A stretch of DNA of 64,000 nucleotides from contig MGCF01000114.1 in the NCBI GenBank assembly GCA_001788495.1, positions 1,074-65,073 of the forward strand, read 5' to 3'. The DNA is from Candidatus Rokubacteria bacterium RIFCSPLOWO2_02_FULL_73_56 (lineage in GTDB: Bacteria > Methylomirabilota > Methylomirabilia > Rokubacteriales > CSP1-6). Position 1 is the first letter of the stretch. Every line of letters starts with the position of its first letter. The notes beneath the pieces are model-generated. The model was not told the DNA's origin. It made no database searches and was given only the letters and a program-made list of their open reading frames with translations. This document shows positions 35,001 through 56,000 of the stretch, piece after piece. A program made the translations under genes and the position numbers.

Positions 35001-38000
35001 CCGGGAACGGAATGTCGATCGACACGCCGAAGTGCATGAACGCGCGGTCCAGGACCACGTCGCCCAGCGTGATCGTGACGTCCGGCCCGGCCGGGTCCGT
35101 CGTGATCACGGACGTCGCGGTCTCGATCACCGACCACGTGCCGCGCGTGAAGGTCGCGGTGACGGCGCCGGTGGCCGCGAAGGCGCCCGCGATCCGGTAG
35201 CGCACGGTGCGCCCGTCGGGCAAGAGCTCGGGCGCCACGCCGGGGTCGACGGCCACCGTGCCGAGGCCGGCGCCGCCCAGCACGAACTCGCTCACCGCGA
35301 GCGGCGAGCCGGAGAAGGCCAGCGACGTGACGTCGAGGTGGAAGCCGGTCGCGACGTCCGGGAACGGCACGTCGATGGCGATCGGCACGTCCTCGATCAC
35401 GATGAAGCCGGCATTCGGGTCGTCCACGTCGCCGAGCGTCACCGTGACGTCGTCGCCCTCGGCGTCCAGCAGCGACCAGCTGCCGGCGATGAACGTGGCG
35501 ACCACCGCGCCGGCCTGGAGCGCCTGGGTCAGCGTGTAGCGGTACGTGCTGCCGCCGACCGGCGTCGGCGCGGCGCCCGTCAGCGCGGCGCTGCCGGCGC
35601 CGGGGCCGCCCAGCGTGAACTCCGGCGCCGCGTCCAGGATCGAGGCCGGGTCGAGGGCCAGCCCGCTCGGGTGGGCCGGGAACGTCACGTCCACGAAGTC
35701 CACGCGCTCGTCGCCGGTGAAGCTCAGCACCGGCGCGCCGCTGTCGTCCGCGATCAGCGACAGGGCGCCGGGCGTGAAGCTCACGATCACGTCGCCGGCC
35801 ACGAGCGCCTGGCTCAGCGTGTACCGGTAGATCGGCGAGGCCGCCGTCCCGCCCGGCTGGAGCACCGGCGTGCCGGTGACGGTCGAGCCGCCCAGCCCCG
35901 CGCCGCTCAGGGCGAACTCCGGCTCGGCGTCGGTGACCGTGCCCGCGTCGACCGCGAGCCCGCTCGGGTGCTCGGGCAGCTGCACGTCGACGAAGGCGTC
36001 GCCCGCGTGGTCGCCGAGGTTGGCGGAGGCCGGCTCGAGCACCGGGTCGATCAGCGACCAGGTGCCGGTCGTGAAGGTCACCGTCAGCTCCCCTTCCGCC
36101 AGCGGCTGCGTCAGCGCGTAGCGGAACGTCGTCCCGCCGCGGTACTCCGGCGTGCCGGTGATCGAGGCGCCGCCGGAGAGCGCGTCGCCGCTCAGCACGA
36201 ACTCGTCGCCGGGGTCGGTGACGGACGCCACGTCCATCACGAGCCCGCCGGGCGGCGTCGGGAACGTGATGTCCACGTACGACGCGAGCGGCGCCTGGCC
36301 CAGGTTCTGCGTCATCAGCGGGCCGGCCGGGTCGACGAACGACCAGGCGCCGTCCAGGAACTCGACCGTCACCACGGTGGCGATGAAGGCCGGATCGGCG
36401 TCGCCGGTGCTGCCGAGCGTCGCCGTGAACGGCGAGCCCGAGTCCACCGAGGCGTCGCCGACCGCGTCGAGGACCGACCAGGTGCCGCGGGTGAACTCGG
36501 CGGTCACCGCGCCCGTCGGGGCGAAGGCGCCGGTGATCCGGTAGCGGACCGTCGTGCCGTCCGCCAGCACCACGGGCGCGGTGCCGTGGTCGATGGCCAC
36601 CGTGCCGAGCCCGGCGCCGCCGAGCGTGAGCTCGTCGAAGTCCGCCAGCGAGGTCGGGTCGAGCGTGAAGCCCGCGGCGACGGGGAACGGCACGTCGATC
36701 ATCACCGCGTCGCCGAGGCCCAGGCCGTCGCCGGCGATCGGGTACCGGACGTCGCCGGTCTGGGTGACGGACGGCGTGCGGGTCGGATCGGCCTGGACCG
36801 TCTTCGCGGCGAACGACCAGGCGGACGGCGTGAACGTCACCGTCGCGAGCGTGCCGGCGGGGATGGGGCTGGTCGTGGTCACCTCGAACCGGAACGTCCT
36901 CGGGCCCACCTGGCTCGGCGGCTGCGCGGTGAGCGTGGCGCCGCCCGACACCGCGATGCCCGGGTCGCCGTCGAGGATCGAGCGCGGGTCGAGGAGGAAG
37001 CCGGCCGGCACGCGGAAGTCCACGTCGATGGTGCCGCGGGTCGTCTGGCCGGAGAGCGCCGTCACCAGCGGCGAGGCGCCCGCCGCCGCCGTGGAGTCCG
37101 CCTGCGACCAGCTGCCGGGGACGAGGACGACCACCAGGTCGCCGTCGGCGAAGGCGCCCGCGACCACGTCGTAGGTGAACGTGGCGCCCGTCGTGTGCAC
37201 CGGCGCGCCGAGGACGGCCGTCCCGAGGCCGGCGCCGCCCGGCGTGAACTCGGCCGCGGCGTCCGTCACCGAGCCCGGGTCGATCGCGTGGCCGCCGGTG
37301 GGGAACGTGACCGACAGCGTCGTCTGCCCGGACGTCACCGGGATCGTCTGCACCGCCTGGCCGTAGGCCGGGTCGGTCGCGAGCGTCAGCACGAACTCGG
37401 GCGCCGCGTCGGCGATGGACGCCGGGTCGATCGTGAAGCCGGCCGGCGCCGCCGGGAACGTCACGTTCAGGAAGAGCGGCTCGGCCAGGTCCGCCACGAG
37501 GTCCGGCGCGGCCACCGTGCCCGGCAGGGCGCGGTACGCCCAGGTCGCCGGCAGGAACGTGAGCGAGACGTCGTCGCCCGCGAACGTGCCGCCGAGCCAG
37601 TACCGGACCTGGCGCGCGCCCTCGTGCAGGACCACGGGCGCCTGCCGCGTGTCGAGCACGACGTCGCCCAGGCCCGGGCCGCCCAGCCGGAACTCCGCCC
37701 CGAAGTCCGTGATGGACTCGAAGTCGAGCACGAAGCCCTGCGGGGGCGCCGGGAAGGTGACGTCGAGGTAGTTGCGCCCGTTCAGCGCCGAGACGTCGAT
37801 GCCCGAGCCGTTGGCCGGGTCCGTCGTGTTGGCGGTCGCGCCCTCGACGCGCACGCTCAGGTCGTCCACCGTGTCGAGGCCCACGTTGCCGCGGCTGTCG
37901 CGCCAGCCGGCGCCGGTGCCCGCGTCGAAGGCCAGGAAGTCGACCACCACCGTGCCGGGCGCCCAGGCGACGGCCGCCGCGTCCGCGCGGTAGCGGAAGC

Positions 38001-41000
38001 GGTTCACGCCCTCGTTGGTCAGGCGGACGAAGAAGTCGGCGTCGCTCTCGCCGCCGTTCTTGGCCACCACCGTCGGCACCAGGACGCCGGTCGTCTCGTC
38101 GGGCACCATGGCGATCGGCACCGGCGTGCCGCCGAAGTGCAGCGGGCCGCCCGTCGCCGCCGCCGCCACCGTGAACTCGTCGCCCGCGTCCAGGATCGAC
38201 GCGTAGTCGAGGCCGCTGCCGGGCGGCGCCGAGAACTGGACGTCGAGGTAGAGCGGCCGCGGGGTGGCCACCGTGAGGTCGCGATCGGCGTCGAGGACGG
38301 CGACGTCCACGGCCGTCCGGCCGTTGAACGGCGCGCTGACCGTCGCCCGCGGCGCCACCACCGTGAACCGCCCCTCGCTGGCCGCGCTCGGGCCCGCGCT
38401 GTCGCGCCAGCTCCCCAGCGGGAAGGCGACGATGACCTCGCCCAGCGCGAAGTCGCCCTCGAGGTAGTAGCGGAACACGTTCGTGCCGGGCAGCCGGGTC
38501 GGCGCCACCGACGCGATCGTGACCCCCGTGCCGCCCGCCCCGCCCAGCGTGAAGTCGTCGGTGCCCAGCGTCGCCGTGTCCACCGTCCGGTTGGCCGTCG
38601 GCGCCAGCAGCACGTCGATGTAGCCGCGCGAGATCGTCGCCGAGCTCACCACGGTCGGCACGCTCGGGTTCGGCACCGGGTCGCCGGTCGCCAGCTCGAT
38701 CGCCACCCAGCTCGTGTCCACCGGCGTCAGGGTCACGTTGCCGCTCGCGTTCTGGCCGATCACCCAGTACCGGAACGTGTGCGTGACGTCGTCGATGAGG
38801 ATGGGCGACTGGCCCGGGTCGAGGCTCAGGCTGCCGCCCGCCGACGCCACGTCGAACTCCCGGCCGAGGTCGGTGATCGAGGCCTCGTCCAGGCGGTGGC
38901 CGCTCGGCACGCCGAACGTGACGTCGAGGGAGCCGCGTCCGTTCAGCTCGCCGATGGCGATGCCGTCGCCGCTCCGCGGGCCGGCCAGGCTGGCCGTCGG
39001 GGTGAGCGGTGGCAGGTCGGGCACCGCGAACGCGACCTCTTCGCCCGAGGCGTTGCGGAAGCCCATCTTCAGGCGGCCGTCGATGGTGAGGATGCGGACC
39101 TGGTCCGGGATGTCGGCCAGGAAGAGCACGGTCACGTCGCCGCTCGACACCCGCGACAGGTCGGCGTAGAGGCGCCCGCTCACGCTGATCTGGTCGGCGG
39201 CGAAGTTCAGGGTCCCGATGATGAGGAACTTGCCGTCGGTGCTGATCTTGATCGTCACCTGGCCGTTGAAGAGCTGCTGGGAGGTGTAGATCGAGAAGAT
39301 CTTGGCCGAGCCGGTGATGGTCATGGGCGCCGTGAACGCCGCCAGGAAGCCGTTCATCGACGGGTTGGCCTTCACGATCAGGTACTGCGCGGCCACCTGG
39401 GCCTTCACCGTGGACAGCCAGTTGTCCACGCTCACGTTGGCGGGCAGCGCGAAGTCGGGGCCGCGCAGCTGCTCGGGCTGGTCGATCGACGGCAGCGTCT
39501 TGAAGAACTCCACGCCGGCCGTGAAGTCGTTCATGGAGAGGCCGGTGTTGGGCTCGAGCAGGATGCCGGTCGGCAGGCTGGCCGACAGGAACACCGTGAG
39601 CGGGCCGAGCTCGGACAGCGCGAAGCGGATGTTCACGCCGATCGAGCCCGCGATCTTGAAGCCGCCCTCGACGCCCACGAAGAACACGCGGTCGGCCACC
39701 GGCGTGGTCGTGTCGATCGGCTCGATGATCCGGCCGCCCGCGTCGAGCTTCAGGATGCCGCCGATCAGCGTGGCGCTCAGCTCGCCGCCGAACACGTTGC
39801 CCTTCACGGACACGCCGATGGCCGCGATGTCCACGATCGGGAACTCGCCGCGGAGCAGCTTGCCGACGTCGATCTTGACGCCGTCGATCGAGCCGGAGAA
39901 CTCCACGCCGGCCATGCCCTGGATGCCCGTCACGCTCGCCGACAGCGTCAGCACGAAGTTGGCCGGGTCGGCCTGGATGTCCGGCCACTCGATGCCGATG
40001 GCGGTGATGCGGACCGGCAGCCAGCTCGGCCACTTGAAGCTGTCGCCGCTCGCCCCGCCCACCGAGAGGAACACGCCGAAGCCCGGCCGCGTCTGGAACG
40101 AGCCGTCACCGAGGAAGGCGAAGTTCCGCGCCTCGCCCGCGATGACGACGCTGCCCACCTTCACCTCGGCGCCGACCGACTGGAAGCTGACCAGCGGCTC
40201 GTCGTCCGCGGCGCCCGTGTCGATGCTGAAGCCGCGCGCGGTCAGCGTGAGGAACGAGCCGAGCGTGATCCGCATCGTGTCGGCGTCGAAGCGGAACGCC
40301 GAGACCCTGCCATCCTCGAACTCGAGGGTGGCTCGCATCGCCTCGGTGTCCGGCCGGCCCGGCAGGTCGGTCGGCTCGGAGCCCACGCGGTCGCTGATCG
40401 TCGCCGAGATCGGGCGGCCCGGCAGGAACCGCACGCCGCCCGTCGCGAAGAAGATGTTGCCGTCGAAGTCCACCGCCTGGCCGAAGGTCACGCCGAAGTT
40501 CTGGACGCCGATCCTGAGATCGTCGAACTCCAGGATCGAGCCGAACTTGATGCCCGCCCCGGCGCCCGGCCCGCCCGGCCGCCACGTCAGCTCCGCCTCG
40601 CCCAGCCGGAAGCCGTTGTCGTAGACGACGAGGCCGGGGATGCGACGGTCGTCGGCCGGGTTGTTCGGCGTGTCGTTGTCGTCGGTGAACGGCTCGATGG
40701 AGCCCGTCACGCCGAACGACGGGAACGTGATGGCCGCCGCGTTGACGACCACCAGCTCCTGCGGCTTGCCGCCGTGGTCGGCGGCCTTGTAGGCCGGGTC
40801 GTAGGCGATCCGGATGCCCGAGCCCGTCACCCGCACGACGTTCGGGACGAGGACCTCGAGGGTCGCGATGCTGAGGCTGAACTTGCCCGGCACCTCGAAG
40901 GCCGCGAGGAGCCCGGCCGGATCGCTGATCGCCTGCACCGCCTTCATGACGTCGATCTGGACGTCGAAGGTGCCCAGGATGCCGGTGAGCACCGCCGAGA

Positions 41001-44000
41001 TCCCGCTGTTGCTCTGCCCGGCCGCCGCCGACGTGCCGCCGAAGCCCAGGCTGGCCGTGTTCACCTCGATGGCCACCGTCAGCGTGAGCTTGCCGCCCTT
41101 GAAGGACGTGCCGGCCAGGCTGATGGACGGGCCCTCGAGGGAGAGCGGCCCGAGGCTGATCGCGTTGCTCGCCGTCGCGGCCGCCTGCGTGTCGCTGGCG
41201 ATCGTGAAGGCGGCCACGGCGCGGCCGGCGTCCACGAACGTGCTGGGGCCGGTCTGCACGCGCCAGGACGGCGTCGGCGTCACCACGCCCACCACCAGCG
41301 CCGGGAACTCGATGGTGACGGCGCCGTTCACCCACATCTGGTTGGTCGCGACGCTGGCCTTCGGCGTCAGGAAATACCGGAACGTCGTCGCGTTGAGCTG
41401 CAGCGGATCCGGCGTGCCGGTGACGTAGCCGTTGGTCAGGTCGAGGTTGGCGGCGCCGGGGCCGGAGATGCGGATCTCGTCGCCGTCGATCCCGACCAGC
41501 GCGCCGGCCACGCCGGGCACGAACGTCACGTCGATGTACGGCCGCGCCGTCAGCGTGCGGAGGTCCGCCACCACGCCGTTCTGCGGGCTGGCGAGCGTCG
41601 CGACCGGGACCGGCGGCGGCGTCGGGGCCGGGCCGCTCGGCGGCGCCGGCGGGAGCACCACCACCGAGAACTGCTCGATCTCGCTCTGGTTGCTGGCGCC
41701 GCGGGTGTCGCGGAACGAGCCGGCCAGGAACTGGACCTCGACGGTGTCGTACGGGTCGAGCGGGTCGTCCGCGAAGGCGCCGGTGAAGCGGTAGCGGAAC
41801 AGGTTCGGGTTGTTCGGATCCGGCTGCTCGGCGGCGCCGTTGACGTCCACGCCCGCCGCCGCCGCGCCGACCAGCAGGAACTCCGGCGTGTCGTCGGTGA
41901 TCGAGTCGGCGTCCAGCCCCACCCGGTTGACGTCGTTGAACAGGACGTCGATGGAGCCGCGCGCGTTCAGCGTGGCGCGGTCGATCGCCTGCATCGTGAA
42001 CGGCGACTTGAGGTCGGCCGTCGGCGGCCGCAGCGAGGTCGTGGGCGGCGCCGTCGTGAGGCCGACCGTGTCGAAGATCTCGAAGCCGTTGACCCGGATG
42101 TCCTGCAGCTGGAAGCCCGCGCCGCCGCCGATCGCGAAGCGGGCCGAGCCCTTGAGGCTGAAGACCTCCTGGATCGAGCCGTCGATCGGGATGCTGATGG
42201 CGATCTCGGCGTCCGGGATGTCCACGTCGAGCCGCCCGTTCGGCAGCCGGGTGAACCGCACCGTGCCGCTGATGGTCACCAGGTCGGCCGCGCTGACCAC
42301 GAGCTTCGCGCCCGGCGTCACCACGCCCTGCTCGTTGACGCCGGCCTCGAAGACCTCGATCGCCGCGCCGGTGGCGAACGGCATCGTGATGGTGTTGACG
42401 CCCGGCTCGCCCGGCTCGTCCACCTGGCCGTTGCCGTTGTTGTCCACGCCGTCGTCGGGCAGCGAGACGGCGTCGGTCACCGGGCGCCCGGTCTGGTTGA
42501 TGAGCACGCGCAGCGTGCCCGTCACCGTGAGCGGGTCGAGGCCGACCAGGCCCGCGCGGCCGTAGGCGAAGAGCGCGAAGGTGTCGTCGGTCTGGTTGGC
42601 CTCGTCGTTGAGGAACTTGACGACGCCGACCTTGGCCTGGGTGACCAGGATCCCGATCGCGTCCGGGTTGACCGAGTCGTCGGCGAGCCGGTAGGGCCCC
42701 AGCCCGAGGAAGATCTCGACGTCGGCGGCGCCGTAGAAGAACTTGTCCTTCACGTCGTCGCCGTCGGTGTCCTGGCTGATCACCGTGAAGTCACCGGTCA
42801 GGCTCAGGAAGTCGCCGAACGAGATGCTCACGTCCGTGAGGCTCAGCGCGAAGGTCTCCCGGGCGACCTGGACGCGGATCGCCTGGCCGGCCACCGTGAC
42901 CGTCTCGTTGACGTCCTGGCTCGTGGTGTTGATGCCGAGCGTGACGTCGCTGCCGACCTGCAGGAAGTCGCCGGGCGTCTGGATGTCGAAGGTGCCCCGG
43001 AACACGCCCGCCACGCCGCCCGAGTTGGCCACGCCCACCGTCGCCGGCGTGATGATGAGCGCGCCCTGCCCGTCGGTCAGCTCGACGCTGCCGAGGAGAC
43101 CGCCGTCGAACAGGACGTGGACGTCGGTGGCGGCGACGCGCACGACCTTCGGCGCCGCCGGGCCGACCCCGAGCGTGATCTGCTCGAACTGGAAGTTGCC
43201 CTCGAGCGTGAAGGCGGTGCCGCCCACGTAGATCACGAGGTCCACGTCGGTGGCCGTCAGCCGGAAGTACGGGCCGGCCGGCAGCGTGAGCACGGCGGGC
43301 TCGCCGGCCTCGTCCACGGTGCCGTCGTGGTCGTCGTCCTGCCCGTTGGCGTCGAGACCCGGGATCGCGAACGTCTCGTTCACCGCCGTGGCCGCCGTGT
43401 TGATGGCGACGCCGAGGTCCACGTTGGTGAGCGCCACGCCGAAGGTCGTGTCGCCCAGGCTGAAGCCGAGGCCCGTGAGGGTGAACTCGGCGGCCACGCC
43501 CGCGTTGTTGACGAAGATCAGGCCGTTCGGCGTCTGGATGCCCGGGGTCGCGCGGTCGGCCGCCGAGCCCGTCTGCAGGCTGAACACCGGCGGGTCGCCG
43601 AGCGAGAAGTCGAGGTCGCCGACGGCGATCTTGATGGCCGTGGTGCCGTTCGGGCGCGTCGCCTGCTCGAAGAAGATGTCGGCGGCGATGCTCACGCCCG
43701 TGACGCCCAGGGTCACCCGGCCGCTGGCGCGCAGCAGGCGCTGGTCGAAGGCCAGCGGCATCGACGAGGCCGGGCCGGTCGGGACGACCAGGAAGCCGTC
43801 CGGCGAGCCGTTGGCGTCGGCGTCGAACTTCGTGAGGTCCACCACCGGCACCGGCGTCCCGGGCGCGGCCGCCGAGTCGCTCGAGCCGTTGACCTCGACC
43901 GTCATGCCCGTCGCCGAGAGCGTGACGCCGGTCACTCCGACCAGCTCGACCGAGCCGGTGGCCCTGAGCGCGTAGAAGCTGCGGGTGGCCGGCGTGGCCG

Positions 44001-47000
44001 AGACCGGCTTCATGAGGGCCAGGCCGAACTCGACGTCGCTGAGCGTGACGCCGATGGCGCCCGCGGTGGCCGGCGTGTCGGCGCCGTCGATCACGCCGTC
44101 GCCGTTCTCGTCCACCCAGTACGGGCCGCCCATGCCCACGAACGCGTTGACGTTGCTCGCGCCGATCTTGAGCAGGCTCACGCGCGTGGTGCCGGGCACG
44201 CCGACCAGCGTCGCGTCCAGCTCCCAGCCTTTCTCGAAGGCGAAGGCGCCGCTGACGTGGACGAACTCGCCGATGGTGAGGGTCACGAAGCCGGTGGCGC
44301 GCACGAAGCGGCCGGTGAAGGCGAGGAAGATCTGGTCGGCCGGGGCGGGGCCGGTGCGGACGCTGAGGCCGCTCGGCCCGAAGGTGGTGACGAAGTTGAC
44401 GGGGGCCGGGATCGAGCCGGGAGGCCCGCGCGACTCGTTGATCTCGATCGTGAGCTGCTGGACCGACACCGTGAGGCCCTGGATCCCGACCAGCTCGACC
44501 GAGCCCACGGCCTTGAGGGCGAAGAAGCTGACGAGCCGGTCGGCCGGGGCCACGATGGCCGGGGCGCCGGGGGCGCCGGGCGAGGTCGGCTTCATGAGCG
44601 CCAGGCCGAACGAGTCCACGGTGACGGCCAGCCCCATGGCGCCGTCGGCGGCCGGCGTGTCGGCGCCGGTGATCAGGCCGTCAGCATTGCTGTCCACCCA
44701 GTACGGGCCGCCGACGCCCACGAAGGCGCGCACGTTGCTGGCGCCGAGCGTCATCAGCGTCACGTCGCGGTGCGTGCCGTCGGCCAGCGTCACGTTCCGG
44801 GTCGCCCCCTGCTCGAAGGCGAAGCTCCCCGTGACGAACACGAACTGGTCGATCTGGATCGTGACCGAGCCCGACGCGCGGAGCAGCCGGCCCGAGAAGG
44901 CGAGATCGATCACGGGCGCCGGGGCCGGGCCGGTCGCGATGCCGAGCTTGCCGCCCGGCAGCCGCGTGAAGTCCACCACCGGGATCAGCACGCCCGGGGT
45001 GGCGCTGTCGCTGGCGCTGTTGACCTCGACCTGCAGCGTGCCCGCGAGCGTGAAGCCCTCGATGCCGACCAGGGAGGCGCTGCCCCGCGCCTTGAGCGCG
45101 AAGTAGCTCCTGGTCGAGGCCGGCGCCGGCGCCGTCACCACCGGCCGCATCAGGGCCAGGCCGAACTCCACGTTCTGCAGCGCCACGCCGAGCGCGCCGT
45201 TGGCGCCCGGATCGTCGGCGCCGTCGAAGCGGCCGTCGCCGTTCTCGTCCGGGTCGCCGATGCCCACGAAGATGTTGATGCCGCTGCCGCCGATCCTGAG
45301 CGCCGACACGCGCGTGGTCGCGGTCGCGCCCACCGGCGTCACGAAGAGGTCGGCGCCCTTCTCGAAGGCGAAGTTCCCGCTGACGTAGACGAAGCCGTCG
45401 ATCTGCACCGTGGCCGACGCGAACAGGCGGAGCAGCGGGCCGTTCATCGCGAAGGTCACCGCGCTCGGGCCCGTGCCCACGACGAGGTCGTCGCCGAAGG
45501 CGCCGGCGTCGGCGAAGCGGAGCGCTGTCGCCCAGTCGAGCGGGGCCGGCGGCGTGGGCGTGCCCGAGGACTGGTTGATCTCGATCTGGAGCGTGTGCGC
45601 CGTCAGCGTGAAGCCGTCGACGCCGACGAGACCGGCGCCCGCGATCGTCGAGGACACCGCCAGCCAGGACCGCGGGTCGGCCGGCCCGACCGCCGGCAGC
45701 GCCGGCTTGAGGATCGCGACGGCCAGCGTGCCGTGGTCGATCGCGAAGCCCACGCCGTTGACGCCGAGGAACAGCTCGTGGCCGTCGTCGTTCGGGTTGA
45801 TCTCGAGGAACAGCGTCGTGAGCGTCGCGTTGTCCAGGTCGAGCGTGCCGTTGCCGTCGAGGTCCACGTCCACCGTGCGCGTCTCGAAGGCGAACCCGAT
45901 CTGGCCCGACACGAAGCCGAACAGGTCGATCTCGGCCAGGCCGGAGGCGCGCAGCACGTCGCCCGTGAAGGCGATCGGGTGGTCGACGCCGTCCACGTCC
46001 TCGACGATGAGGTCGTCGGGGCCGTCCTGGCCGAAGACGGCGTCGCCGTTCAGGTCGAGCGCGGTCGTCCAGTCGAGCCCGGGGATGGTGCCGGCGGTCG
46101 TCGAGCCGCGGTTGATCTCGACGGTCAGCTCGACCAGCGTCAGCGTCAGGCCCTCCACGCCGACGAAGCCGCCGTCCTCGATCTCGGCCGTCAGCGCCAG
46201 CCACGACCGCGGATCGGCGGGGCCGCTCGCGGGCAGCGCCGGCCTGAGCGCCGCGAGCACGAGCACGCCGCCGCCCACCCGGATGCCGACGCCGCCGGGC
46301 ACGCCGACGAAGACGTCGTCGATCGTCAGCGCGAAGGTCACCAGGCTCGCGTTGTCGAGGTCGCGCGTGCCGTTGCCGTCGAGGTCCACGTCCACCGTGC
46401 GGCTCTCGAACGCGAACCCGGCCTGGCCGCTGACGAAGCCGAAGACGTCGAAGGCGATCTCGCCGGTGGCGCGCAGCCGGTCGTCGGTGAAGTCGATCGT
46501 GAAGCCGCCGACGGTGAGCGCGTCGTCGGTCGCCTCGCCGAACGTCCCGTCGCCGTCGAGGTCGAGCGCGGTCGCCCAGTCGAGCGCCGCCGGCACCGGC
46601 GTCGGGGCCGTGGCCGCGCCGCGGTTCATCTCGACGCCCAGGCTGTTGACGACGACGGTCAGCCCGTCCACGCCCACGAACGCCCCGCCCTCGAGCGAGG
46701 CGCCGAGTGCCAACCAGCTGCGCGTGTCGGCGGGATCCGCCGGCCGGAGGGTGGCCAGGGCGAGCGTGCCTTCCGCGATCGAGAAGCCGATGCCCGGGGC
46801 GCCGATGAAGAGCCCTTCCGAGCCGTTCCCGGCGTCGCCGTCGTCGGGCAGGATCCGGAGCGCGAACGTGGTCAGCGTCGCGTCGTCGAGGTCCCCGCCC
46901 GGCGCCGGCGCGAAGGCGCCGCCGTCGACGTCGGCGTCCACCGTCCGGCTCTGGAACTGGAAACCGACCTTGCCCCGCACCAGGCCGAACACGTCGAGCG

Positions 47001-50000
47001 AGAGCACGCCGGAGGCGCCCAGGACCGGGCCCGTGAAGTCGATCGTGACGCCCGCGACGACCAGCAGGTCGCTCGTCGGCTCGCCGGACGGGATGCCGTC
47101 CTCGCCGAACGTCCCGTCGTCGTCGAGGTCCAGCGCCGCGCGCCAGTTGAGCGCCTGCGCCGCCACCTCGTCGCCGGCCGCCGGCGTCGGGTCGAAGACG
47201 CCGCTCGCCGTGTTGATCTCGAAGGTCACGCCGAGCACGCTGATCGCGAGCCCATCGATGCCGCCGTCGTCGAAGGTGGCGCTGCCCACCGCGCCCTTCA
47301 GCGCCAGCCAGCTGCGCGTGTCGGTGGCGCCGCCCGTCGGGGCCAGCGGCTTCAGCGCGGCGAGGGCCAGCGAGCCGGCGTCGATCTCGAAGTGCACGCC
47401 GTTCGGGTCGCCGACGAAGAGCTGCAGGTCGCTGAGCCGGAAGGTCAGCAGCGAGGCGTTCACGAGGTCCGTCGCCGGGGCCGGCAGGTCCACGTCCACC
47501 CGGCGGACGACGACCTCGAAGTGCGCGCTGCCCGTCACGACGCCGAGGATGTCGAGGTTGGTCAGGTCGCCGGTGACGGCCAGCCGCTCGCCCGTCAGCG
47601 TGATCGGCGCGCCGAGCACGATCACGGCGTCCGCCGGCTCGCCGGCCACGAAGGCGCCGCCCTCGTCGAGGTCGAGCGCCGTCGTCCAGTCGAGCGGGGT
47701 CGGCGGCGTGCTCGGCGCCGTCACCACGCCGCTCGCCATGTTGAGCTCGATGGCGACGTTGGCGATGTCCGCCGTGACGCCCGGGAGCGTGAGCGAGGCG
47801 GCGAGGTTCTCGGCCTGGACGGCCACCCAGCGGCGCGGGTCCACCACGGCGCCGGGCGCCGGGGCGAGGGCCGCGATCCGCACCGTGCCGTCGGAGATCG
47901 TCACGCCGAAGCCCGCCACGCCCACCGCCAGCGAGAAGGTCTCTGGATCGGTCGGCAGCGCCTCGTCCAGGCTGAGCCCGAAGGTGATCAGCACGGCGTT
48001 GTCGAGGTCGCGGAGCGTCGTCGGGGACCCCGGCGTCGTCGGCGTGAAGCCGGGCACGCCGTCCACGTCGGCGTCCACGATGTCGCGGGTCACCTCGAAC
48101 CGGGCGGCCCCGGTGACCAGGCCGAAGATGTTGAGCCCGGTCAGGTCGCCCGCCACCTTCAGGACGTCGGCCGTCAGCGTGATCGCGGAGCCGCCCACGC
48201 TCACCGGGTCGAAGCCGAACGCCCCGGCGTTCTCGTCGAGGTCGACCGCCGTCGTCCAGTCGAGCGCCGTGGCCGTGGCCGGCAGCGTCGCGCTGGCGCG
48301 GTTGACCTCCACGACGAGGTTGACGACCGAGGCCGTCACGCCCGGCAGCGACAGGGTCGCGCCGATCCCGCTCGCCTGGAGCGCCATCCAGCGCCGCGTG
48401 TCCGACGGGTCCGCGGGCGCCAGCGTCGCGATCCGCACGCTGCCGCCCGTGATGGCCACGCCGAAGCCCGACACGCCGACCGCCAGCTGGATGTTGGTCA
48501 GCGCGAAGGTCAGGAGGACCGCGTTGTCGAGGTCGCCGCCCGGGGCCGGGGCAAAGCCGCCGCCGTCGACGTCGACGTCCACGACCTCGCGCTGCACCTC
48601 GAAGTGCGCGCTCCCGCTGACGAGCCCGGCGATGTCGAGGTTGTTCAGGTCGCCGCTGACCACGAGCGCGTCGCCGGTCAGGGTGAGGATCTGGCTGGCG
48701 ACCACCAGGCGGTCGTCCGCGGCCTCGCCGAAGAGCCCGTCGCCGTCGAGGTCGAGCGCCGTCGTCCAGTTCAGCGCCTGCGTCGTCGCCGGCAGGGTCG
48801 CCGTGCCGCGGTTCACCTGGATGACGACGTTGCCGAGCGAGGCGCCGAGCAGCCCGCCCACGTTGAGCGAGGCGCCGAGGCCGCTCGCCTGCACCGCCAG
48901 CCACCGCCGCGTGTCGAGCGTGGAGGCCGGGGCCAGCGCCGCGATGCCCACCGAGCCGCCGGTGATCGACACGCCGAAGCCGGAGAGGCCGACCGTCAGG
49001 CTCAGGGTGCTGAGGCCAAAGGTCAGCAGCGTCGCGTCGTCGAGGTCGCGGGTGCCGTCGTGGTCGACGTCCACGTCCACCGTGCGCATGACCAGCTCGA
49101 AGGTCGCCGAGCCCGTCACGAAGCCGACCACGTCGACCGCGAGCTGGCCGACGACGCGGAGCAGCTCCCCGTCGTGATCGATCGTCAGCTGCGACGACCC
49201 GCCGAGCGTCACGATCGTCGCGACCACCGGGTCCGGCGCGAAGACCGCGTCGTTCTCCTCGAGATCGACGGCGCGCGTCCAGTCGAGCGCCACCGCGTTG
49301 ACGGGCTGGCTGACCGTCCCCGCCCCGTCGCCGTCGAACACGCCGGCGGCGCGGTTGACCTGGACGGACAGCGTGGTCGCGGTCAGCGTCAGGCCCGGGA
49401 TGCCCTCGAAGCCGGCGCCCGAGATGTCGGCCGTCATCGCGAGCCAGCTGCGCGTGTCCGTCGAGCCGGGCGCCAGCGTGCCCGGCGTGAGCGACGCCAG
49501 CGCGAGCCGGCCGCCCGTGACGCGGAAGCCCACGCCCGGCACGCCGATGAAGACGTCCGTGACGCTCAGGCCCAGCGTGACCAGGCTGGCGTTGTGGAGG
49601 TCGCCGCCCACGCCCGGCGTGAAGGTGCCGTCGGCGTCGACGTCCACGTCCACCCGCTGCGACTCGAAGGCGAAGCCGACCGTGCCGGACACGAGGGCGA
49701 AGAGGTCGATGTCCACGACGCCGGTCGCCCGCACGAAGTCGCCGGTGAAGTCGATCGTCTGACCGGCAACCGTCAGCGGCGTGGCGAGCGCCGCCGTCCA
49801 GTCGAGCGCGACGGCCGCGACCTCGTCGCCGCTCGCCGGCGCCTCCGGGGTGGGATCGAGCACGCCGCTCGCCCGGTTGATCTGCACCGCCGCGCTCAGC
49901 ACGTCCAGCGTCAGGCCGTCGAGGCCCAGGAAGCTGGCGCCGCCCACCGCGGCCTTCAGGGCGACGAAGCTGCGGCGGTCCGTCACCACCGTGGGGGCCG

Positions 50001-53000
50001 CGGGCGCCTTGGCCTCGAGAAGGGCGAAGGCGAAGTCCACGCCGGTCAGCGCCAGCCCGGTCGCGCCGGGGGTGCCCGCCGGCCCGTTGACGCCCGCGAA
50101 GGCGCTCACGCCGGTCGCGCCCAGCGTCAGCAGGTCGGCGGCGACGGGCGCCGTGCCGCCGGGGAGCGTCGCCTGGGTCGAGCGCTTCTCGAACTCGAAG
50201 GTGCCGCTCACGAAGAAGAACCCGAACACGCCGAGCTCGATCGTGCCCTTCGCCCGCAAGAGGGTCCCGGCCGCGCCCGGGAAGTCGAGCGTGATCGAGT
50301 TGCCGCCGCCGGTGTTGACCGCGAGCGGCGTCGTGGCGAAGTCGACGACCGCGCTGTTCGCGCCGGCACTGCTCGTGCCGCCGCCCTGGTTGATCTCGAT
50401 GCTCAGGTCCGTCACGCCGACGGTCAGCCCGTCGATGCCCAGGAACGTGGCGCTGCCGACCGTCGCCCGGAGCGCCGTGAACGTCCTGAGGTCGGTCGGC
50501 ACGGCGGGCGCGGCCGGCCGGGTCCGGCTCAGCAGCGCCAGCGCGAAGCCCACGTCGTGCAGGCTGAGCCCGACCGCGGCGGGCGTGCCGCCGTTGAGGC
50601 CGGCGAAGGCGTCCACGTGGCTGGCCCCGATTCGCAGCGCCTGCACGCTGATCGGCTCGGCGTCCCCGACCACCTGCACCGTCGTCGTGCTCTTCTCGAA
50701 CGCGAAGTTGCCGCTGACCTGGAAGAAGCCGTAGACGTCCAGCGCGAGCGTGCCCTCGGCGCGGATCAGCGTGCCCGCGGCGCCGTCGAAGTCGAGCGTG
50801 ACGAAGTCACCGGGATTCGGGCCCGTCGCCACGTCCATCGGCGCCGCGCCGAAGTCCACCACCGTGGTGTTGGCGGCGCCGTTGAGCGTGCCGCCGCCCG
50901 AGTTGACGTCCACGTGCAGTCCGGTCGCGCCGATCGTCAGGCCGTCGATCCCGACGAAGTGCACGCTGCCCACGCTCGCCGTCAGGGCCGTCCAGGTGCG
51001 GAGGTCCGTCGGCGTCAAGCCGGCGGCCGGCGCCCTGGCCTTGAGGAGCGCCAGGCCGAACTCCACGCCGGTCAGCTCGAGCCCGATCGCGCCGTCGTTG
51101 CCGGCCGGTCCGTTGACGCCGGCGAAGGCGTTCACGCCGGTGGCGCCGACGGTGAGGCGCTCGACCTGCACCGTCGAGGGCGTTGTGCCGTCGGTGACCG
51201 TGACGGAGGCCGTCTCCGACTTCTCGAAGGCGAAGCTGCCGTCGAGGAACACGAAGCCGAGGACGGCCAGGTCCACCGTGCCCGCCGCGCGGAGCAGGCT
51301 CCCCTGGGCGCCGTCGAAGTCGATGACCTCGGTGTTGCCGCCCCCGGTGTTCACGGTGAGGGGCGCGGCCGCGAAGTCCACCACCGTCGTGTTCGCCTCG
51401 GCGCCGTTCAGGCCGCTCCCGCGGTTGACGTCGAGGTGGAAGTCGCTCACCGCCACGGTGAGGCCCTCGACGCCCACGACGCGCGCCTCGCCGATGCTCG
51501 CCCGGAGCGCCAGCCACTTCCGGAGATCGGTCGGCGGCGTGAGCACCAGCGGATCGATGACGGGACTCATCATGGCGATCCCGAACTCCACCTGACGGAG
51601 CGCCAGGCCGAGCGCCGTGCCGTTCAGCTCCTGCGACTCGCTCGGGTCGATGAGGCCGTTGCCGTTGGCGTCCGCCCCCGTGGGCACCCCGTTGCCGTCG
51701 AGATCGGTGAAGTACGGACCGTTGATCCCGACGAACGCGCCGAGGTCGCTGCCGCCGACCGTGACGAGATCGACGTCCGCCGACCCGCCGCCACTCAGGC
51801 CCACCACGCGATGCGGGAGCTGCTCGAAGGCGAAGTTCCCGTCGAGGTACACGAAGCCGGCGAGGGCCAGGTGGCCGTTGGTCACCGTGACGCGCAGGAA
51901 CGGACCGGCCGGGATGTCGACCGTCACGCCGTCGATCTCCGTCACGGCCAGGGTCGTCTGGTTGAGCGTGAGCCCGAACGTGCCGCTCACCTCGAAGCCG
52001 TCGATGTCCGGCCCGGCCACCAGGTCGATCGACAGCGTCCCGGCGAGCCCGCCCGGCGACGCCTCGGGCCCGGTCGTCGGCGCGGTGAGCTTGAAGGCGC
52101 CGCGGCCGTTGGCCAGCTCGACGATCCGCGTGGGCCCGGCCGTCAGCGTCAGCTCGACGTCCCGCGCCGTCACCATGATCACGGTCGCGGCGCCCTCGGT
52201 GGTCTTCCGCAGGCGGAACTGGCCCTGGAGGTGCTGGCCGAACGCGTCGAGCCGGCCGCCGAACTCGATGACGAGCTCGGGCGCGACCGGGCCGAAGAGG
52301 TTCTGCGAGTCGACGATGATCCGGAAGTTGCCCTCCGCCGCGAACGGGAAGCCCGCGATCGGATCGCTCGTCAGCGACGCCGTGAACGGCAGGTCGACGT
52401 GCAGCTCGGCCCTCGGCGTGATCGCGAAGAGGCTGCCGATCGGCGTCGCGATCAGGGCGGGCAGCGTGATGCGCCCGTCCACGGCCGGCGCCGTCGGCGC
52501 GAAGGCCACGTCGGCGCCGGCCTGGAGGAAGATCCGCCCGTTGTCGACGCCCGCCGCGAAGCTCCCGACGGCCAGGCCCAGGTCGATCGCGCTGCCGTCG
52601 ATGGTGATCGTGGCGCCGATATGCTCGATCTCGACGAACGCGTCCGCCGCGCTGAGCCCGCTCGTCAGCAGGTTCGAGAGGTTCAGGCCGAAGACCACGT
52701 TGAACTCGAAGTCGGCCTCGAGGTGGATCTCGGCGGCGGCGGTCACCGCGACCAGCGACCCGCCGAGCACGTCGTCGAAGCTCAGGTCGAAGTCGAAGCT
52801 CGGGTTGATGCGGACGGCGATCTGGAACTGCAGCTCGATCCGCCCGCCCTCCGTCACGAGGGCGGCGCCGATGCCCGAGCCCTGGATCTTCCGCTGGGTC
52901 TCGCCGAGCACGACGTCGAACAACCCGCGCAGCGAGGGCGACTCGCTCGCCGCCGTGCGCGCGTCGAAGTAGGCCTCCACCGCGTCGTGGAGCCTCAGCA

Positions 53001-56000
53001 GGTCGCCGATGCCCGGGGAGCTCGGGCCCACCAGGAGCCGGTTCACGCTGAGGCCGATGAGCGGCAACGGCTGGTCCAGGGCGTCGATGCCGAGGATCGC
53101 GTCGCCCAGGCTGTCCATGTGCCCGAGGAGGTCGAGGAACACCTGCTGCAGGTCGACGTCGAGGAGCTCGACCAGCAGCTCGGCGATCGGGTCCCCGGGC
53201 GCGGGGGCGATGTCGAAGTCGAGCGGGCTGGCGATGTCCTCCCACGAGAAGATCAGGCCGACGTCGACGAGGGTGAGCGGCTTGCTCAGGCCCGGGAGCA
53301 GCGCGGCGACGCCGAACGTGCCCGCGAAGACCACGTCGGTCGCGGCCGGGTTGCCCTCGACCGCGAGCGTGAAGTTGCTCGCGTCGAAGTCGGCCAGCTC
53401 GTGCGGCCGGAGCTTGCCGGGCGCCTCGCCGGTGAGCGCGTCGACGCGCGGGTCGTGCAGGTCGAGGCCGAGCCGCACGGCCGGATCGATCGTGACGGTG
53501 GCGTTCGTCAGCTGGAGCTCGATGAACCCGAAGGCGCCCGCCCCGCTCAGCGCGCCGATGGTGATGTGGGTCACCTCGATCTCGGGCCCGCCGAAGGCCT
53601 CCGTGTCGACGAAGAACCCGCCGTCGTCCACGCCGACCAGCATGTGGACGACCATGTCGAGGCTCAGCTCCATCGAGCCCCGGATGGACACGAGGCCGCC
53701 GAGCAGCGAGAGGTCGAGGCCCGGCCGGCCGCTGAACGACGTGACCACGGTCATGTCGAACCGGGTGCCGGCGGCGTCCTCGATGAGCGTCACGTTGTCC
53801 GGGACGGCGTCGAGGTCGTCGAGCGCCTGGCGGAGGGCCGCGGGGCTGTCGATGCTGACGCCGATCTGGTCGAGGACGCCGGCGAGCAGCCGGCCGATGA
53901 GCGTGTCGGGGTTCGTCACCGGAGTCAGCGCCGCCGCCCGCCCGCCCCGCTTCGCCACCTCCGGGAGGCCCAGGCGCTCGCGCTCGGCCGCCGCCGCCGC
54001 GCGCTCCGCCTCCTGCGCCACGAGGTCGCCGAAGGTCGCGCCGGCCTGGCCGGGCGGCAGCGGCACCGGCCGCACCGGCGGATGGTTGCCGCTGACGGCC
54101 TGCCCGAGCGCCGGCACCATCGCGATGTTCTGGGAGCCGAGCGCGTCGCCGAGCTGGTTCACCAGCGCCAGCGAGTTCAGGCCGGAGCGGAACGCCCCCA
54201 GCACGCCGCCCGGGACGTCGAGCTGGCGCTCGCTCGGATCGACGTTCTCGTACCGGACGGTGAGCACGATGCCGAACTCGCCGCCGATCCGGATGACGCC
54301 CGCCGCGCCCGCGCCGCCCGTCAGGACCGCGTCGCCGTCCTGGCCGACGATCAGGAGGCCGTCGGTGCCCGTTCCGCCGTCGTAGCGGATGCCGCCCGAC
54401 ACCCGGACGCGGCTGTCGATCTGCAGCCGGTCGTCGCCGCCGCGGCCCTCGACGACGATGCGCTCGATCGTCGTGAGCTGCTGGCTGCTGACGACCGCGC
54501 CGTCGACGATGACGTTGACCAGGCGCGGGTTGACGGCGTCGAGCTTCAGCCCGAGCTCGTTGTCCCCGTCGTTGCCGCGGACCGTGAGGACGGCCTCGCG
54601 GCCGAGGAGCGCCGCGGCGCCCTCGAGCTCGAACGCCCCGCGGCCCAGCGTCGCCACGACGAGCGTCCCGCCGACCGTCCGGCCGTCGACGATCGTCGTC
54701 TCCGGCGCGTACTGGATGTCGTTGATCGGCATGTTCGGCAGGCCGAGGCCGAGCTCCGTCCAGGTGAGGTTGTTGACGCCGCCGCGCAGGACGACCGTCG
54801 CGGCCGGCTGGATCGCGCCCCCGCCGCTGCTCTCCCGGATCGGGCTGTCCGGGAGCGCCGGCGCCGTCGTGTCGAAGCGCGCGAGCTTCGCCGCGAACAG
54901 CGCGGAGACCGCGGCGTTCGCCTCGAGCACCTCGACGATGCGCCTGGCGGTCGTCGCGGCGTTGACCCGGAAGGTGAGCGTCCGCGTGGGGGCGTCCCAC
55001 GCGACGGTCTCGAGGCCCGCGGCCACGCCGGCCTCGTAGCGCACCGTGACGTCCACGAACTCCACGGCCTGGTTGCGCGCCGTGAACGTGACGTCGTTGT
55101 CGGGCCCCGCGGACAGGAGGGTGCCGGTCACGATGCTCGCCGGGAGGGACGACGGATAGCCGTCGCTGTTCGACGGGTCGCCCACGGGGTTGATCGCCCG
55201 GAACACCCCGTCGTTGACCCCCACCAGCAGCACATCCACCGGGCGCTGGTCGCTGCGCACGCCGCGGCCGTCGTTCAGGAGGCTCAGCAGCGTGTCCCCA
55301 CGGACGGCGGCGAGCGTGCCGCGGAGGACCGCCCCGTCGATGACGCCGCCGACGCCGCTGTCGCGCCGGGGCGCGCCCGCCGCGAGGAAGCCGAGGTCCT
55401 CGAGGGCGAGCGAGCTGTTGAGCCGCACCAGCGTGAAGGCCGTGGCGTCGGCCGTGGCCAGCCGCAGGTGGTCGGCGCCCTGGAGGGTCACGTTCACGCG
55501 CACGGGCCCCACGCCGCCCAGCCTGGAGGCGTCCTGGATCGCCGTGATCACGTCCTGGACGGTGTGCGCCGCGGTCAGGTCGACGCCGAAGGTGCTGCCG
55601 TCGCCGAGCGTGATGGACAGCGACGGGCCCGCGGTGGGCGCGGTCACCTTCGCGAGCGCCAGGCCGCGCACGCGCTCGACCGGCAGCGCGCCGCTGCGGG
55701 CCGCCGCGCCGGTGATGTCCGCCCAGGTGGTGCCCCCGTCGGTGGTGGCGTACACGTGCGCGTCGTCGATCGCGTAGGCGATCCGCCAGTTCGACGGGTC
55801 GACGACGAGGCGCGTGATGCGGCCGGCGTTCGCGATGCTGACCTCGGCGCCGAAGCTGTTGACCAGGTTGTTGGGCCCGACGCCGGCGGGTCGCACGGCG
55901 ATCCGGTTCTCCCGCGCCTCGTAGATCACGTCCGAGGCGTCGGTGCCGTCGGCGGCCCGGACGCCGAACGCCAGCGCCGTGATCGGGAACCCGCTCGGCT

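Follow-up and report, generated by a model that had tools for sequence, protein, structure and literature searches.

A tandem-repeat array in a giant RTX-type protein

In RTX adhesins, tandem repeats made rigid by Ca2+ serve as extenders (PMC7493085), and the known ones (MpIBP region II, LapA, SiiE, MhLap and AhLap) are discrete Ig-like beta-sandwiches of 10-15 kDa that hold Ca2+ in the linkers between domains (PMC7493085, PMC4083281). Here we describe an array of ~175-amino acid (aa) repeats encoded in a 64,000-nucleotide (nt) stretch of DNA, hereafter the window, from Candidatus Rokubacteria bacterium RIFCSPLOWO2_02_FULL_73_56 (assembly GCA_001788495.1, contig MGCF01000114.1, positions 1,074 to 65,073 of the forward strand). 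An earlier note on this DNA had described an array of ~2,900 aa; we found it to be part of a much larger protein (at least 20,620 aa) and not a free-standing unit. The array belongs with a known kind of element, the tandem-repeat stalk of giant secreted RTX-type proteins, but the repeat family itself is undescribed.

The array is like the described extenders in that many tandem copies (at least 15) lie in a giant, Cys-poor and acidic protein that ends in RTX nonapeptides, in its beta-rich repeats with acidic Ca2+-type motifs at the repeat period, and in its presumed role as a stiff spacer that folds outside the cell; a secretion signal is not identifiable by sequence. However, the unit is larger (~18 kDa), gives no Big, cadherin or Ig signal in Pfam and has strands that are predicted to merge into the sheet of their neighbours. 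The discrete Ig-like sandwich of BIg-type extenders was not found, given the meander predicted by AlphaFold2 (AF2), the ladder between repeats seen in direct coupling analysis (DCA) and the lack of a Pfam match. Also, whereas BIg-type extenders bind Ca2+ between repeats, the array has its acidic motifs inside the repeats, on a hairpin tip and in an intra-repeat excursion; about half of the copies carry them and three of the 15 have none. We conclude that the array is not a structural member of the RTX-adhesin extender family.

The giant open reading frame (ORF) is listed from a GTG start at 63909, and its frame holds no stop codon between this start and the window edge (63910-64000, minus strand). 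Since the frame is open and the codons upstream of 63909 (VVFDAGVATQAIRFDAVRGGVEFDGTHIRF) carry on the ~100-aa repeat pattern of the N-terminal region, the gene must be longer than 20,650 aa and run past the right end of the window, and its N-terminus is missing. The GC content at third codon positions (GC3), which reaches 98.9% over the whole ORF and 98.4% in the array, points to the minus-strand frame as the true coding frame, and the motifs quoted in the earlier note (GNFAFE, VDVDVDGGG, VDVDLDGNG and DTRSWLA) were all recovered in its translation where that note had placed them. Long alternative-frame ORFs of 1,255-4,235 aa overlap the giant gene (34112-40033, 44681-48904 and 50807-63514 on the minus strand, 45410-49177 on the plus strand); they are by-products of the 72% GC of the window DNA and the 99% GC3, and are not genes. 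The 20,620 aa include a single Cys, located in the terminal PGCWW, and the net charge of the array is -186. The only recognised domains in the giant protein are RTX nonapeptide blocks at aa ~11,750-12,060 and ~18,300-20,540, outside of which no match was found in Pfam, NCBIfam or PDB sequences.

Copies, subtypes and acidic motifs of the repeat

A hidden Markov model (HMM) of the repeat, seeded with one unit and iterated on the giant protein, converges on 15 full tandem copies (R1-R15) of 166-200 aa each, with E-values of 1e-29 to 1e-58 that are far beyond chance. The repeats reported earlier are thus real, but not as seventeen uniform copies, since 15 are canonical and further repeat-like material at aa 6740-7040 and ~3880-4020 is degenerate. 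The figure of seventeen over-counts the canonical units and under-counts the whole repeat-like zone, and it probably came from counting GxFxFE-like occurrences such as GNFQFEQ at aa 6904. Pairwise identity among the 15 copies, which fall into two subtypes, A and B, is 20-60%, so that they are old duplications kept under selection. Two non-repetitive stretches of the protein, at aa ~10,560-11,560 and ~3300-3880 (window ~29230-32230 and ~52270-54010), have an amphipathic long-strand sequence like that of the array, with GxAHFVLE-like and LQVNTxD-like motifs; they gave no HMM match and may be very degenerate relatives of the repeat.

The most conserved positions of the repeat (R11 numbering) are F6, G43, A60, D73-x-R75-x-W77, N107, [LIV]-[DN]-[WFY] at 119-121 and G164. 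The GxFAFE core that had been taken as common to all copies is strict in R1-R3 and R13-R15, is reduced to GFAFE in R5, R11 and R12 and reads GTFEFE in R4, with only the first Phe invariant. Likewise, DTRSWLA does not occur in every repeat, although as D-x-R-x-[WFY] (13 of 15 copies) it is the best-conserved element, and the proposed Asp ladder, searched for as [VIA]D[VAL]D[VLA][DPN], was found in 8 of 15 copies only, R5-R12. These eight are the type-B repeats, which carry a VD[VA]D[VL][DP] ladder at the first hairpin tip, DLDNAxL on the return strand, D[TP]R[SR]W and L[DN]W. Type A (R1-R4 and R13-R15) has GxFAFE (GTFEFE in R4) and no Asp ladder, and R1 and R13-R15 have an inserted 12-residue loop that resembles an EF-hand, for example DENGDGVIDGAD. 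The idea of one Ca2+ site per repeat is not supported in that form by this distribution, with the ladder confined to R5-R12, the EF-hand-like loop to R1 and R13-R15, and no acidic motif in R2-R4.

Two loop patterns were scored, D-x-[DNS]-x-[DNS]-G-x-[ILV]-x-x-x-[DE] (EF-hand-like) and DxDxDG. The array contains four EF-hand-like 12-mers (in R1 and R13-R15) and eight DxDxDG-type matches, five of which lie in the long excursion of type-B copies (five of the eight such copies, R8 having the near-match DLDEGG), two overlap the ladders of R11 and R12 and one falls in the R1 insertion. The Asp/Gly-rich loops are like those of the RTX beta-roll (PF00353) and of EF-hand-type loops (FG-GAP, dockerin, thrombospondin type 3) in being likely Ca2+ ligands, and DENGDGVIDGAD, DSNADGLITGAD and DENGDGRFDGAD fit the 12-residue EF-hand form as DLDGDG fits DxDxDG. 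In the array, however, they are short motifs grafted onto a different scaffold, GGxGxDxUx nonapeptides are absent, and V-D-V-D-V-D is the end of a beta-strand and not a beta-roll turn.

In type B, V-D-V-D-V/L-D ends strand 1 with its Val and Leu side chains on the hydrophobic face and its Asp side chains opposite, and is followed by a G-x-G turn and by D-L-D-N-A on the return strand. Up to five carboxylates would therefore be grouped at one hairpin tip, and the DxDxDG loop of the excursion sits on the same sheet edge as this tip. Of 733 repeats of the family, 24% have the ladder and 32% the DxDxDG loop, which makes these motifs, from the sequences, optional decorations and not the core of the family. 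The two were found together in 115 repeats where 57 were expected, twice the expectation, and D14-D19 and D19-D26 covary in DCA; both results fit ligands of one optional metal site. Judging from the motifs, the acidic loops most likely bind Ca2+.

Predicted structure and coevolution

AF2 was given a 48-sequence alignment for the single repeat R11 and 25 three-repeat rows for R10-R12. The single repeat was modelled with a predicted local distance difference test score (pLDDT) of 96.8 and a predicted template modelling score (pTM) of 0.87, and the three repeats with 89.6 and 0.82. A discrete beta-sandwich, the fold that structure prediction had been expected to check, was not predicted; the repeat is instead modelled as a meander of six long strands that runs into the next repeat. 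The strands (residues 3-15, 25-43, 49-63, 76-90, 95-111 and 159-170 of R11) are antiparallel, 12-19 residues long and strictly up-down, with a 45-residue excursion (residues 112-158) between strands 5 and 6 that holds three short strands. Tight turns on one edge join strands 2-3, strands 4-5 and, between repeats, strand 6 to strand 1 of the following repeat, where the gap in the three-repeat model is 3 residues. The other edge has the long loops, namely the Asp-ladder hairpin (strands 1-2), a Pro/Ala-rich loop that ends in D-x-R-x-W (strands 3-4) and the excursion (strands 5-6). Column statistics show a strict hydrophobic/polar alternation in all strands, whose parity shifts where a stripe of Gly and small residues crosses the middle of the strands (E9-T12, T53-G-G-S56, S100-N101 and S163-G164-T165), so that the sheet should be amphipathic and probably kinked along its length.

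For DCA, 983 repeat instances were cut from 163 family proteins and a mean-field model was computed on the 728 non-redundant ones (effective number of sequences, Meff, 687). It recovered all five of the hairpin ladders that the AF2 topology has within a repeat, with index sums of ~43, 95, 143, 190 and 266. The top coupling, A81-W127, joins a conserved Ala of strand 4 with the Trp of LDW and is followed by L64-L125, and many others pair V124, L125, W127, A130, L149, I151 and F153 of the excursion with hydrophobic-face residues of strands 1-5. Column statistics establish a hydrophobic face while coevolution places the excursion on it, and given these couplings the excursion would cover at least much of that face, which disfavours both a lipid-exposed barrel and a fully open groove. 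Lower-ranked couplings of uncertain precision (W79-V172, R77-G170 and G47-I108) join the long-loop and short-turn edges and are a hint that the sheet folds over on itself.

Between repeats, DCA on 479 concatenated pairs of consecutive repeats ranked R159(n)-E9(n+1) 10th and T163(n)-S5(n+1) 14th, in one common antiparallel register. These couplings form a ladder that ties strand 6 of repeat n to strand 1 of repeat n+1, and they directly support a sheet that runs on across repeat boundaries. Couplings between the same positions of neighbouring repeats were also seen, and are more simply explained by subtype correlation. These models predict a long-stranded meander that is continuous, is covered by an excursion and has an optional Asp-ladder/DxDxDG edge, an architecture with no match in the libraries searched.

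Searches for a named family or a solved fold

The claim that the family is unrecognised holds, since no significant match was obtained in Pfam, NCBIfam, PDB sequences or Foldseek searches of PDB and viral models. Pfam was scanned with the whole array at E ≤ 0.01 and with 48 individual repeats at E ≤ 1, and the single repeats matched no adhesin repeat family at that threshold. The two families named beforehand as the ones whose match would tell against the claim, SdrD-B and DUF11, were not found: neither scan gave a SdrD_B/CnaB-type match, the predicted unit of ~175 aa being no sandwich bead, and DUF11 (PF01345) was absent from both, as were Big, cadherin and Ig. PF00353 (HemolysinCabind) did not match within aa 4001-7000, although it does elsewhere in the giant protein, and an NCBIfam search of the array and a profile search of PDB sequences with the repeat returned nothing. 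The ~175-aa repeat is not described in the papers on giant genes that were consulted either.

A few weak Pfam matches were obtained. DUF3613 (PF12266) reached a summed 34.5 bits on the whole array (cut-off 25), with no single stretch significant, and matched 6 of the 48 repeats with a best E-value of 0.001. Its best stretch covers profile positions 17-42 of 66 (26 positions) over the RRWLAVQASG element, and we rejected the identity since the two have only a short motif of ~26 residues in common and not the domain. FG-GAP, FG-GAP_3 and EF-hand_5 each matched two of the 48 repeats, which is attributed to the DxDxDG-type loops, although the matched positions were not reported by the scan.

Against PDB, Foldseek gave a best E-value of 0.11 and TM-scores of at most 0.32 for the single-repeat model (pLDDT 97). 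The three-repeat model reached E-values of ~1e-4, but with TM-scores of ~0.2 and a root-mean-square deviation (rmsd) of 18-28 Å. The PDB matches were outer-membrane barrels only (TonB-dependent receptors, porins and autotransporter barrels), with no repeating-beta-groove structure among them, and the viral models gave no match. On these models and searches, the repeat family is new and its fold probably so, within a known kind of protein.

Relatives of the repeat

A word-indexed homologue search recovered only 27 fragments, all unannotated, many of which end in Arg-rich out-of-frame tails; given these tails, they appear to be pieces of giant genes broken by frameshifts. Such a search is misleading here, as it would wrongly suggest a rare family. 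An exhaustive HMM search returned 1,596 representatives of 50%-identity clusters at E ≤ 1e-3 and 423 at E ≤ 1e-30, among them proteins of 4,000-7,900 aa with up to 29 copies each. All named relatives are called 'hypothetical protein', and they come from metagenome-assembled genomes (MAGs) of Pseudomonadota, Opitutales and Gaiellaceae and from a TARA ocean sample. A protein-pattern scan and a degenerate DNA pattern scan for LDWTTALDLD in the named genomes found nothing.

Other Pfam domains are sparse in the relatives, with RTX repeats in one and a marginal Peptidase_M10 match (HExxH region, near the gathering score) close to the N-terminus in two. Their surroundings hold more giant-gene fragments, transposases and an RTX-containing continuation, and no secretion genes were seen in this genomic context. 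One relative (L003) is a colinear run of ORFs of 3,101, 5,572 and 3,568 aa with RTX downstream, and the giant gene of another (L002) is broken by IS21, Mu-type and DDE transposases. At a third locus (L001), the gene calls are 500-900 aa long and have Arg-rich out-of-frame tails. The repeat thus recurs as a building block in giant RTX-associated proteins of several phyla, and databases underestimate how many such giants exist and how large they are, given their systematic fragmentation in public assemblies.

Function of the array

In regards to function, the favoured explanation, to which we assign a probability of roughly 0.55, is that the array is a structural extender, or stalk, of a giant secreted RTX / type I secretion surface protein. 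It is suggested by the giant, Cys-poor and acidic nature of a protein that ends in RTX blocks, and by relatives that are also pieces of giant genes with RTX downstream. The six long antiparallel strands of each repeat would join a shared sheet, with the last strand forming a hairpin straight into the next repeat, so that 15 or more repeats would make one continuous meander of ~90-110 strands and not beads on a string. The hydrophobic face would be covered by the 45-residue excursion ([LIV]-[DN]-[WFY] followed by hydrophobic short strands), bending along the mid-strand stripe of Gly and small residues would probably add burial, and the long-loop edge would be stapled by the conserved polar cluster D-x-R-x-W / N-R-A-S-G / [DN]-W. 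On that edge, about half of the copies would present carboxylate clusters (the VDVDxDG...DLDNA tip, DxDxDG loops and EF-hand-like 12-mers) that most likely bind Ca2+. The segment, highly acidic and with no Cys, could stay unfolded during export, after which Ca2+ outside the cell would fold and stiffen it, thereby pushing the distal parts of the protein outward. At 6 × 4.8 Å per repeat, the rod would measure ~43 nm for the 15 repeats and ~55 nm with the degenerate flanks, or roughly 45-55 nm if 15-19 repeats are counted.

Several points weigh against this explanation. R2-R4 and most family members have no acidic motifs, so that Ca2+ cannot be a general folding principle of the repeat, and the 4-5 conserved Phe that each repeat clusters at its short-turn edge are given no cover by the coevolution data. 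The rod shape, the rise per repeat and the carboxylate geometry come from the strand prediction and not from inspected coordinates. Secretion and surface anchoring are read from the RTX region, the N-terminus, retention module and type I secretion genes lying outside the window. Finally, Pfam and PDB sequence searches recognised no adhesive or enzymatic domain anywhere in the giant protein that the stalk might present.

This last point could also mean that the array is itself the adhesive surface, a multivalent ribbon that binds a mineral or metal oxide, a polysaccharide or the envelope of another cell, an explanation that we consider unlikely. The outward face of every strand is mostly T, S, G, D, E and N, the array is strongly negative, its acidic motifs run along one edge, the rest of the protein gave no recognised ligand-binding domain, and the host is probably a soil Methylomirabilota/Rokubacteria bacterium. 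But the residues of the polar face are poorly conserved compared with those of the core and the loop staple, the absence of acidic motifs from most family members argues against a conserved binding function, and none of the data indicate a ligand.

The uncovered Phe cluster on an amphipathic sheet, together with the couplings between the same positions of adjacent repeats (even though subtype correlation accounts for them more simply), could instead point to a self-assembling matrix or S-layer-like scaffold in which sheets join laterally or edge-to-edge in a Ca2+-dependent manner. S-layer proteins secreted by an RTX-type route are known, such as RsaA of Caulobacter. We nevertheless find such a scaffold rather improbable, as the monomeric models, with their high pTM, point to a fold that is sufficient in itself, a chain longer than 20,000 aa would be an odd lattice subunit, and the data give no sign of oligomerisation.

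AsmA-like proteins are built on the principle of a groove formed by a continuous meander, and the array could accordingly be compared to AsmA/TamB/YhdP and VPS13, with which it shares a long continuous antiparallel meander with one hydrophobic face, strands added perpendicular to the long axis and ~5-6 strands per repeat plus a longer connecting element. It might then be a bridge-like hydrophobic conduit with an open groove that carries lipids or other hydrophobic cargo over tens of nm, outside or between cells. The strictly hydrophobic face and very long strands agree with this, as do the weak Foldseek matches, all of which are single-layer long-stranded sheets. However, coevolution sets W127, L125, V124, F153, I151 and L149 on the hydrophobic face of strands 1-5, so that the excursion appears packed onto a face, at least largely covered, that those proteins leave open. 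The unit also differs, with six strands and a same-side excursion here as opposed to five strands and a crossing loop in the repeating beta-groove, and the array lies in an RTX-type exported protein and not in a periplasmic bridge anchored in the inner membrane. We found no sequence or profile relationship: kinship with TamB/AsmA was rejected at the sequence level, since hhalign against E. coli TamB gave a probability of 0.7% and Pfam no AsmA, TamB or DUF490 match, nor was a repeating-beta-groove structure among the PDB matches of Foldseek. An open conduit is very unlikely on this evidence. Just as doubtful is a variant in which a single uninterrupted sheet of ~100 strands and ~50 nm, with no solved counterpart, would have its face partly covered and keep a hydrophobic track along the Phe cluster for shuttling lipids or hydrophobic molecules outside or between cells. 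If true, this partly open track would be a counterpart, outside the cell, of bridge-like lipid-transfer proteins, and would have arisen separately from the AsmA/VPS13 lineage. The array would count as a new system only if its hydrophobic face turned out to work as a channel.

Scarcely credible is a toxin-like beta-barrel or pore module inserted in the outer membrane of the producer or in a target membrane. The best Foldseek matches are TonB-dependent receptors, porins and autotransporter barrels (weak, E 1e-4 to 0.1), and the array shares with outer-membrane barrels its long antiparallel strands in all-next-neighbour order, with tight turns along one edge, long loops along the opposite one and aromatics near both. 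But the matches are only local (TM-score 0.15-0.32, rmsd 9-25 Å), so that the curvature is unlike that of a barrel, the last strand pairs with the following repeat and gives no closure, the hydrophobic face coevolves with, and is covered by, the protein's own excursion, and ~90 strands with Ca2+-type loops in a unit repeated 15 times in tandem resemble no known barrel. An outer-membrane barrel was therefore rejected.

The repeat is also of more general interest. Giant bacterial surface proteins are mostly dark sequence. The family has ~1,600 50%-identity clusters and no counterpart in Pfam, NCBIfam or PDB, and its proteins reach 7,900 aa as called and more than 20,000 aa here, so that defining it would put an annotation on thousands of residues in each of many metagenomic giants. 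With its one continuous sheet, such a stalk would be built on another principle than the Ig-bead extenders that have been studied to date and, if the Ca2+ dependence is true, it would extend the rule of folding only outside the cell to a new scaffold. Frameshifts, insertion sequence (IS) elements and short-read assembly systematically shatter such giant genes, which are therefore more abundant and larger than they seem.

Other regions of the giant protein and its neighbour gene

Table 1. Features of the window described in the text (all on the minus strand; aa numbered on the giant ORF as listed)
Feature	aa	Window position	Strand	Evidence
Giant ORF, 20,620 aa as listed		2047..63909	-	frame open on to window base 63999; GC3 98.9%
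Degenerate lead-in	~3880-4020	51850..52272	-	self-BLAST similarity to later part of repeat (chunks at aa 3801, 3901)
Canonical array R1-R15	4021-6739	43693..51849	-	HMM domain matches E 1e-29 to 1e-58 and alignment
Type-A block R1-R4, GxFAFE/GTFEFE, without Asp ladder	4021-4740	49690..51849	-	
EF-hand-like loop DANGNGLIDPSE in R1		51637-51672	-	
Type-B block R5-R12, Asp ladder, D[TP]R[SR]W and L[DN]W	4741-6174	45388..49689	-	
Asp ladder VDVDLDGNG, end of strand 1 / first hairpin tip of R11	5839-5847	46369..46395	-	
Seven other Asp ladders		49627-49653, 49054-49080, 48556-48582, 48052-48078, 47473-47499, 46915-46941, 45847-45873	-	
DxDxDG loop DLDGDG, R10 excursion, after LDWATAL	5783-5788	46546..46563	-	
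Repeat R11, copy modelled alone	5827-6000	45910..46431	-	AF2 and coevolution ladders
Type-A block R13-R15, GxFAFE and 12-residue EF-hand-like loops DENGDGRFDGAD, DSNADGLITGAD, DENGDGVIDGAD	6175-6739	43693..45387	-	
Degenerate C-terminal continuation of array	6740-7162	42424..43692	-	internal HMMs E 1e-23 to 1e-28
Clear partial copy	7043-7150	42460-42783	-	E 1e-23
C-terminal RTX-type region, ~118-aa repeats with GGxGxD nonapeptides	~18,200-20,540	2290..9312	-	Pfam, NCBIfam, PDB, self-BLAST
Class I SAM-dependent methyltransferase, downstream neighbour, true product likely ~358 aa		421-1689	-	Pfam Methyltransf_11/12/25/31, WHD_Rv2258c

The C-terminal RTX region (Table 1) was recognised by Pfam HemolysinCabind (3.8e-43), by NCBIfam RTX models and by matches to CyaA RTX in PDB, and its last block stops ~80 aa short of the C-terminus. 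RTX matches were obtained at aa ~12,025 and ~18,300-20,540 with Pfam, NCBIfam and PDB, and at aa ~11,750-11,840 with PDB. Within the region, ~15 copies of a ~118-aa super-repeat with RTX-like GGxGxD units (NIILGGxGxDxI…LGDNGxV) span aa ~18,200-20,000 (window ~3900-9312). In the C-terminal part of the protein (window ~2047-2500), a His/Asp-rich stretch, HHEHHHGWWHHHEHHDHDDHDDHD, directly precedes the last RTX block and a His/Trp-rich stretch, HHRWHDGDWWDGDWWGWKDHGRHRHQAWHDDYWSHHGSWHHHG, lies a little upstream of it; both may be metal-binding.

Other tandem repeats were also observed. At the N-terminal end, ~16 copies of a ~100-aa repeat (xxRFTAxxxGxxxxGLxVxYVxGxxAGxExAxYDxxxxxLxVxIxxGxTTAxQVxxAxN) occupy aa 1-1650 (window ~58960-63909), with relatives at aa ~2200-2500 and 2800-2950 and no Pfam, NCBIfam or PDB match, and a similar-looking ~100-aa repeat returns at aa ~15,400-17,270. 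Downstream of the array, ~25-30 copies of a ~110-aa repeat (YLDVTFxxPxGxxLDxxSIxDxxxEFxLxGxGxGxV...FRYxLxGxFxxGxVxVxFxxGxW) were seen at aa ~7200-10,550 (window ~32260-42310), with no Pfam or PDB match. At aa 63-143 (window ~63480-63720), the BNR/Asp-box-like motifs SLDGGRTF and SEDRGRSW coincide with a weak Sortilin-Vps10 Pfam match (E 0.009), and more SxDxGxTW-like motifs lie near aa 2,600-3,000; they may mark beta-propeller segments.

The methyltransferase gene downstream of the giant gene encodes a product with ~80% identity to its closest named relatives, which are Methylomirabilota/Rokubacteria MAG proteins. A 100% identical methyltransferase is found on a 6-kb short-read contig in ENA (ERZ4903070:k141_47723), which begins inside the C-terminal 1,002 aa of the giant gene.

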